From an uncultured archaeon (GTDB taxonomy: Archaea > Asgardarchaeota > Heimdallarchaeia > Heimdallarchaeales > Kariarchaeaceae), in NCBI GenBank assembly GCA_964645535.1, contig CAZYCQ010000001.1, positions 64,001 through 128,000 of the forward strand: a stretch of DNA of 64,000 bases. The letters run 5' to 3'. Each line of letters starts with the position of its first letter. Position 1 is the first letter of the stretch. This document shows, in pieces, positions 48,813 through 49,236 of the stretch. The notes beneath the pieces are model-generated. The model searched no databases. It was given only the letters and a program-made list of their open reading frames with translations, and was not told the origin of the DNA. The position numbers were made by a program, and so were the translations under genes.

Positions 48813-49116
48813 GGATTACTTGCTTTTTAAGTAAATAAGTATTCTCGTTTTTCAAGATGTTTGACGAGGGATTTAGACTTGAAACAAAAGCATCAGTTTT
48901 TTATTCATGTTGGAGGAACAGATTATTTTATTCTGCACAACAAAACTGTTTCAATTGGTTGACTCGACATTTCAGGGATGCAAGGGCTTACTAGATTTGA
49001 TGAATCTTAATTATAGCCTATTCTTGTTTTTCGCTTTGCCAATCATTTATCAAAAAGTCCATTCATGGCCAATTTCGCAAACCAAGCTTAATATTCTAGT
49101 GATTGATTCAATATTT

Positions 49117-49192
49117 GCCGGTGAGGAGCGGGAGAATCTTCGGATTCGATGAGCAATTAATCGGGGAAACTTGAGGGTTTGCTCCTCCCGGT
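49117..49192 (+). ncRNA. Candidate structured small RNA with K-turn
   Basis: GC-rich island in an AT-rich spacer: closing stem CCGG-T-GAGGAGC/GCTCCTC-CCGG, GAATC-TTCG-GATTC and TCGGG-GAAA-CTTGA hairpins; TTAATA about 25 nt upstream; T-rich tract downstream. Confidence 0.6.
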
Positions 49193-49236
49193 TTAATTTA
49201 GCAAAAGGTTAAATTAATTATTTCCAATGCGATTTC

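Follow-up and report, generated by a model that had tools for sequence, protein, structure and literature searches.

The question raised by positions 49117-49192 of the window (the whole stretch of 64,000 nucleotides analysed here) is whether this forward-strand segment of about 76 nt is an RNA gene and, if it is, to which class of RNA it belongs. The original prediction described it as a stand-alone structured RNA of a possibly undescribed class with a kink-turn bound by L7Ae. Each of the parts on which that description was built (the closing stem, the UUCG hairpin, the GGGA and GAU-GA-GC letters, the TATA-like box and the T-rich tract) was located in the sequence, and their coordinates are given in Table 1. 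The analysis identifies a single-copy gene whose structure is conserved, which is specific to one strand and which does not depend on its neighbours, and we regard it as very probable that a genuine and conserved gene for a structured RNA lies here. The best reading is that it specifies a new, lineage-specific non-coding RNA of 70-99 nt belonging to one Heimdallarchaeota family.

Table 1. Parts of the element and of its flanks (window coordinates; P1, closing stem; P2, apical hairpin)
Feature	Position	Strand	Remarks
TATA-like box TTAATATT	49088-49095	+	22-29 nt before the first closing-stem base
P1, 5' strand	49117-49129	+	U49122 bulged; probable transcript start; partner 49181-49192
Junction G and non-bulged kink-turn strand GGA	49130-49133	+	3n G49131, 2n G49132, 1n A49133; GGA abuts the 5' side of P2 in 7/7
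P2 hairpin (kink-turn C helix)	49134-49147	+	GAAUC / UUCG loop / GAUUC
Bulged kink-turn strand	49148-49155	+	Bulge GAU, G1b-A2b = 49151-49152, then GCA; GAUGAGCA the same in 7/7
Spacer N3 (N4 in one genome), then AAUCGGGG	49156-49166	+	AAUCGGGG in 7/7; here AUU + AAUCGGGG
Variable linker, 14 nt	49167-49180	+	UUGA 49171-49174 could pair weakly with UCGG 49161-49164
P1, 3' strand	49181-49192	+	Complementary to 49117-49129
T-rich tract	49193-49199	+	Directly 3' of P1; probable archaeal termination signal

Locus, distribution and gene signals

The forward strand of the element was predicted to fold with an energy of -32.3 kcal/mol (z = -2.99 against dinucleotide shuffles), and the corresponding value for the reverse strand was weaker (-23.5 kcal/mol). 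Homologues were sought with blastn and with two covariance models, one of the core (R1) and one including the stem (R3). Within the genome from which the window was taken (G000; 3.6 Mb, 89% complete) the element matched itself alone and is therefore single-copy. Matches to three genomes of the same genus and to one other genus of the family were obtained with blastn, and R1 added two further genera. Together these searches placed exactly one copy per genome in seven of the 12 genomes of one GTDB family; the five members in which no copy was detected are 63-86% complete. The dispersed copies expected of a MITE- or REP-like repeat, which the original prediction had named as an opposing outcome along with a lack of covarying homologues, did not appear (a single copy in 3.6 Mb and one model match per genome), and the homologues in the seven genomes do covary.

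Beyond the family, R1 returned no copy from 35 genomes of the other three families of the order and no convincing copy from a 151-genome sample of the phylum, R3 gave nothing convincing across 83 genomes of the class and viral contigs contained zero matches. The weak phylum-level matches (17.9-26.6 bits) were rejected as having no stem, promoter or T-tract architecture. Two R3 matches in another family (27-30 bits) were also rejected: they form a near-identical pair in which A1n is missing from both, and the one examined lies in a 454-codon open reading frame on the same strand. Scanning one genome per prokaryote species for the exact pattern recovered six homologues, all from 'Candidatus Heimdallarchaeota archaeon' MAGs; six GC-rich bacterial matches from the same scan, judged from their flanks, correspond approximately to the chance expectation from the information content of the pattern. 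When the exact pattern was run against metagenomes only two contigs were added, both identical to the version in genome G008. About 20 GC-rich bacterial matches in metagenomes, of which the flanks only were inspected, were likewise read as chance. A Gemmatimonadales metagenome match (L059/L060) has 25 core bases identical to the variant in genome G011; it folds no better than shuffled sequences (z = -0.13) and was treated as a chance resemblance. The segment that carries it, L059:6325-6450 (contig Ga0180437_10000212; identical in L060), is an intergenic segment of about 125 nt between dcd and nuoA that is missing there in close relatives.

Signals of an independent gene accompany every copy. 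In each of the seven genomes the start of the stem is preceded, at about 21-32 nt and in most cases at 22-28 nt, by a TATA-like box (YTAAAT or TTTAAG) in flanks that are otherwise unalignable, and a T-rich stretch follows immediately after the last stem base in all seven homologues. The neighbouring genes vary. In G000 the RNA stands between a divergent Ras-family GTPase gene and an SDR gene, and in G001 and G002 between a divergent GNAT acetyltransferase gene and the SDR gene. In G003 it is inverted and directed away from the SDR gene. The RNA of G008 is divergent from a Ras-family GTPase gene and convergent with an LRR gene, that of G009 lies downstream of a HIT-domain gene and that of G011 lies downstream of a PD-(D/E)XK nuclease gene and is convergent with a HAD hydrolase gene. 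Since the neighbours and their relative orientation differ between genomes, the element cannot be the leader of a single gene family, and the promoter-like box at fixed distance and the T-tract in 7/7 uphold the earlier proposal that it stands alone. Comparison of the G003 locus (L051, 2508-4057) with window positions 48213-50034 indicated an apparent, very local inversion of about 150-200 bp, after which the RNA still adjoins the SDR gene.

Helices and the strand of the RNA

The closing stem P1 comprises 12 bp in G000 and 7-13 bp across the homologues; its sequence differs in most genera or species and its pairing is always kept. In G003 P1 is a perfect, AU-rich helix of 13 bp; G002 and G011 each have 12 bp, and G001 has 13 bp, of which two are G-U pairs. 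In G008 and G009 it is shortened to 7 bp, and an additional hairpin is inserted before the 3' strand. On direct reading, the P1 sequences of G003, G002 and G011 are mutually unrelated.

Pairing was quantified on an alignment of the seven sequences, four of which come from one genus. This alignment (A6) was fitted to the model and its G008 and G009 stem rows differ from the stems read by eye, so that the five full-length rows carry the result: standard pairs occupy 94.8% of cells and 13 of 17 pairs are changed on both sides. None of 500 shuffles matched A6 on any measure (0/500), and sliding the partner strand by one column reduced the pairing to 44-52%.

P2 covaries as well. G009 has one pair changed on both sides, and in G011 a G-C pair has become G-U and the helix is longer; the loop occurs as UUCG, UUUA, GUGA, UUAU, UAU or GCAA. 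The covariation on which the original prediction was to stand or fall is thus strong and is found in both helices, P1 and P2. Its observation that G-U pairs favour the forward strand also holds: G49117-U49192 in G000 and further pairs in G001 and G011 fit that strand only. On the opposite strand each G-U pair of either helix would turn into an A-C mismatch.

A second hairpin, UCGGG-GAAA-CUUGA, had also been proposed. The fold predicted for G000 contains this hairpin when P1, P2 and the kink-turn are imposed as constraints, and to that extent the proposal stands; its GAAA loop is not conserved. What recurs is a weak UCGG/UUGA pairing, possible in five of the seven genomes and accompanied by zero compensatory changes, so the 'three-way junction' is the least secure part of the proposed fold. 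Compensatory support was also sought for an alternative AAUC/GGUU pairing in some genomes and was not found. A competing pairing of UCGAU with AUCGG is possible in all seven members. As every informative core position is invariant, covariation does not bear on whether the core is single-stranded.

Kink-turn and invariant core

The core GGAG-P2-(C/U)GAUGAGCA-N3-4-AAUCGGGG is kept in 7/7 sequences. The single strand that follows the kink-turn reads GCA-N3-4-AAUCGGGG, in which GCA and AAUCGGGG are invariant and the spacer occurs as AUU, ACU, CUC, UUC or GAUC. Invariant bases amount to about 25 in the 76-nt element.

In the standard kink-turn a Watson-Crick C helix is flanked by a bulge of three nucleotides, after which come a G-A and an A-G pair (Huang & Lilley 2016, PMC5061560). 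The corresponding positions are present here: the GAU bulge is followed by GA (49148-49152), which faces GA (49132-49133), in all seven sequences. On the C side P2 provides a covarying helix of 4-5 bp or more with C-G at -1b/-1n (U-G in G011). The kink-turn of the original prediction is borne out in that its diagnostic letters (the 3-nt bulge and the G-A/A-G pairs) are invariant throughout the set. The element shares with kink-turns of the Kt-7, box C/D and U4 type a 3-nt bulge ending in U, the G-A/A-G pairs, C-G at -1b/-1n and G at 3n. The last of these is found in all seven copies; 3n = G has been associated with efficient folding, also when metal ions are the only aid, and all 16 variants at 3b/3n assayed in that study folded with L7Ae (PMC5061560). 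The difference lies on the NC side. There 3b-3n is G-G in all copies and C at 4b stands opposite G, U or A, after which a large one-sided loop begins, so that the kink-turn is not set inside a duplex and instead occupies the edge of a large asymmetric loop closed by P1.

G000 encodes two proteins of the L7Ae family (PF01248), one of them on contig 21, as well as fibrillarin. Given the invariant kink-turn letters and the presence of L7Ae-family genes, binding of L7Ae is plausible and, judged from sequence, probably takes place at the predicted kink-turn.

Relation to known RNAs and proposed function

At gathering score Rfam gave no match at the element, and ARAGORN reported no tRNA there; the sole catalogued RNA gene in the window is a tRNA-Arg(TCG) at 24984-25054 (+), with an Rfam score of 35.3 bits. 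A relaxed Rfam scan of 48900-49400 returned noise only (E >= 1.2), with no riboswitch or self-cleaving ribozyme model up to E 10. The one alignment that touches the element belongs to the C/D family sR11 (12.6 bits against a gathering score of 39, E = 9). No description of the element was found in the literature or in Rfam 15, which agrees with the suggestion of an undescribed class.

With archaeal H/ACA sRNAs (bound by Cbf5-Nop10-Gar1-L7Ae) the element has in common a closing lower stem, an internal loop and a kink-turn with an apical stem-loop in the same strand orientation. Assignment to this class was rejected, as there is no ACA or ANA box 3' of the stem, where the flanks start with UUA, UUU, UUA, UUU, AUU, AUU and UAU. 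The internal loop is one-sided (0-7 unconserved nt on the 5' side and at least 20 nt on the 3' side), and so a two-sided pseudouridylation pocket is absent. A Ro60-bound Y RNA was likewise rejected: no TROVE domain (PF05731) was matched in the 89%-complete genome G000, and the stem sequence is not conserved.

The reading that we prefer, with a probability of about 0.55, is a stand-alone RNA that is probably bound by L7Ae and whose closed ends and kinked hairpin would present GCA-N3-4-AAUCGGGG to a putative partner. Transcription would most likely start at the first base of P1, with the TATA box centred about 25 nt upstream, and most likely end in the T-tract just past P1. In that case the 7-13 bp of P1 would hold the 5' end against the 3' end. 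The base of P2 would adopt a standard kink-turn, formed by the C-G closing pair, the GAU bulge and the G-A/A-G pairs made from GGA and GA. L7Ae may dock there and fold P2 back towards P1, and the bend, together with the closed ends, would expose GCA-N3-4-AAUCGGGG as a working surface for a protein or as a short RNA seed.

A degenerate or half-sized box C/D guide, in which a C'/D'-like kink-turn recruits L7Ae, Nop5 and fibrillarin and the strand after GAUGA directs 2'-O-methylation, is an unlikely alternative to that reading. Like archaeal box C/D sRNAs, the element is a small stand-alone archaeal RNA with a GAUGA/xGA kink-turn around a short stem-loop, and the order xGGA, stem-loop, GAUGA fits a D'-loop-C' arrangement; the sole Rfam alignment that touches the element is, moreover, to sR11. 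The host has the C/D proteins fibrillarin and L7Ae, and a strict box pattern found two canonical C/D sRNA candidates of 52-56 nt in G000 (contig C50, about 19273, +; contig C33, about 13, -, in the reverse-complement count). The candidate on C50, about 3 kb upstream of the 23S rRNA gene, has in common with the element the 11-mer GAUGAGCAAUU (C' box and guide start). Against this, those two sRNAs have canonical boxes and are shorter than the 70-99 nt of the present family, which contains one kink-turn and non-consensus boxes: the kink-turn register gives boxes of 5/7 (C) and 2/4 (D). The second box pair is absent, the termini forming a plain helix of 12-13 bp with no kink-turn, no conserved sequence and no conserved boxes. 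A CUGA at guide spacing, 12 nt downstream, is lacking; there is a UUGA at a distance of 15-19 nt, which three genomes do not have. A permuted arrangement was rejected, its would-be C' and D boxes being only 2 nt apart, and the complementarity to rRNA or tRNA expected of a guide was not seen (see below).

It is likewise unlikely, although slightly less so, that the kink-turn is a protein-free architectural element and that the invariant junction is a ligand-binding or catalytic core, making this a trans-acting RNA resembling an aptamer or ribozyme. Covarying stems around some 25 invariant junction nucleotides are the typical pattern of such RNAs, and the G at 3n would favour folding in metal ions alone (PMC5061560). 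The absence of any riboswitch or ribozyme match up to E 10 speaks against it, as does the failure of a hammerhead reading of CGAUGAG...GAAAC, which lacks U4 and includes a GAAA that is not kept in the relatives; an expression platform is likewise absent, and the downstream gene is not constant. Nor is the loop-receptor contact usual for architectural kink-turns available, because the P2 loop is variable. A cis-acting 5' leader of the downstream SDR gene, whether riboswitch-like or protein-binding, is very improbable. The RNA lies on the same strand 45-85 nt upstream of that gene in G000, G001 and G002, and an SDR gene adjoins it in all four genomes of the genus. On the other hand, it points away from the gene in G003, meets a convergent gene downstream in G008 and G011 and follows the HIT-domain gene in G009, and each copy has its T-tract after the stem. 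The kink-turn leaders of archaeal mRNAs that bind L7Ae (Daume et al. 2017, PMC5539422; Huang et al. 2019, PMC6298567) are comparable as non-guide kink-turn hairpins thought to work via L7Ae; they differ in lying within the 5' UTRs of specific genes, whereas the present element is accompanied by promoter and terminator signals of its own and has varying genes downstream. That the locus holds no functional RNA at all, being a chance palindrome, a DNA repeat or MITE or part of a small coding gene, is most improbable. One frame is open through the core and an 81-codon open reading frame (48907-49152) overlaps the 5' half, but no frame is shared throughout, since it is interrupted by the 1-nt spacer indel in G011 and by the indels of 1 or 11 nt in the loop of P2, and the element is accordingly non-coding; it is also single-copy, absent from viral contigs and compensated strongly in two helices, and its G-U pairs and its promoter and terminator signals are strand-specific. 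An snRNP-like module, with a kink-turn stem-loop bound by Snu13/L7Ae and a U-rich strand between G residues bound by an Sm-like protein, might be imagined by analogy with the 5' stem-loop and Sm site of U4, and its chance is very small. The U-rich stretch after the invariant GGGG stands out best in three genomes (two with GUUUUG, one with GUUUA) and is absent in one genome.

Heimdallarchaeota are among the closest archaeal relatives of eukaryotes known, and to our knowledge their repertoire of non-coding RNAs is almost uncharted. The element adds to it a structured RNA family that is well supported by compensatory changes, its own promoter and the occurrence of one copy per genome. Its kink-turn is of the type bound by the L7Ae/Snu13 family, yet it falls outside both classical archaeal guide classes (C/D and H/ACA). 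If the stand-alone RNA is indeed bound by L7Ae, it would add to the kink-turn small RNAs of this lineage a third type, one that stands alone, and, with about 25 invariant bases in 76 nt, would offer a compact handle for partner finding. The significance is limited by the narrow distribution of the element, to one family.

The invariant strand was also compared with possible antisense targets. In G000 no complement of at least 12 nt was present besides the element itself. The rRNA comparisons used the relatives G003, G001 and G009 because the rRNA assembly of G000 is incomplete: contig C50 (22284-23802) holds the first half of the 23S rRNA only, at the contig end, and 16S rRNA was not found. 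The duplex energy of the conserved strand with the 16S and 23S rRNAs of G003 equalled that of shuffled versions, and no notable match was obtained among the tRNAs of G000, so the rRNA or tRNA complementarity raised in the original prediction was not confirmed. UUGAGGGU matches the 16S leader over 8 nt, but this match was set aside, as it occurs in G003 only and is absent in G001 and G009. A 10-nt complement before a Glu/Leu-dehydrogenase-like gene is missing from the orthologues in G001, G002 and G011 and was rejected. Mimicry of rRNA was discarded too, the matches being chance ones of 7-9 nt only. The tRNA set of G000 has features of its own: in standard mode ARAGORN assigned unusual anticodons to Asn(att), Asp(atc) and Val(aac) and reported a tRNA-Glu of 94 nt that contains an insert. 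All of them are probably archaeal tRNAs that carry introns or have been mis-called.
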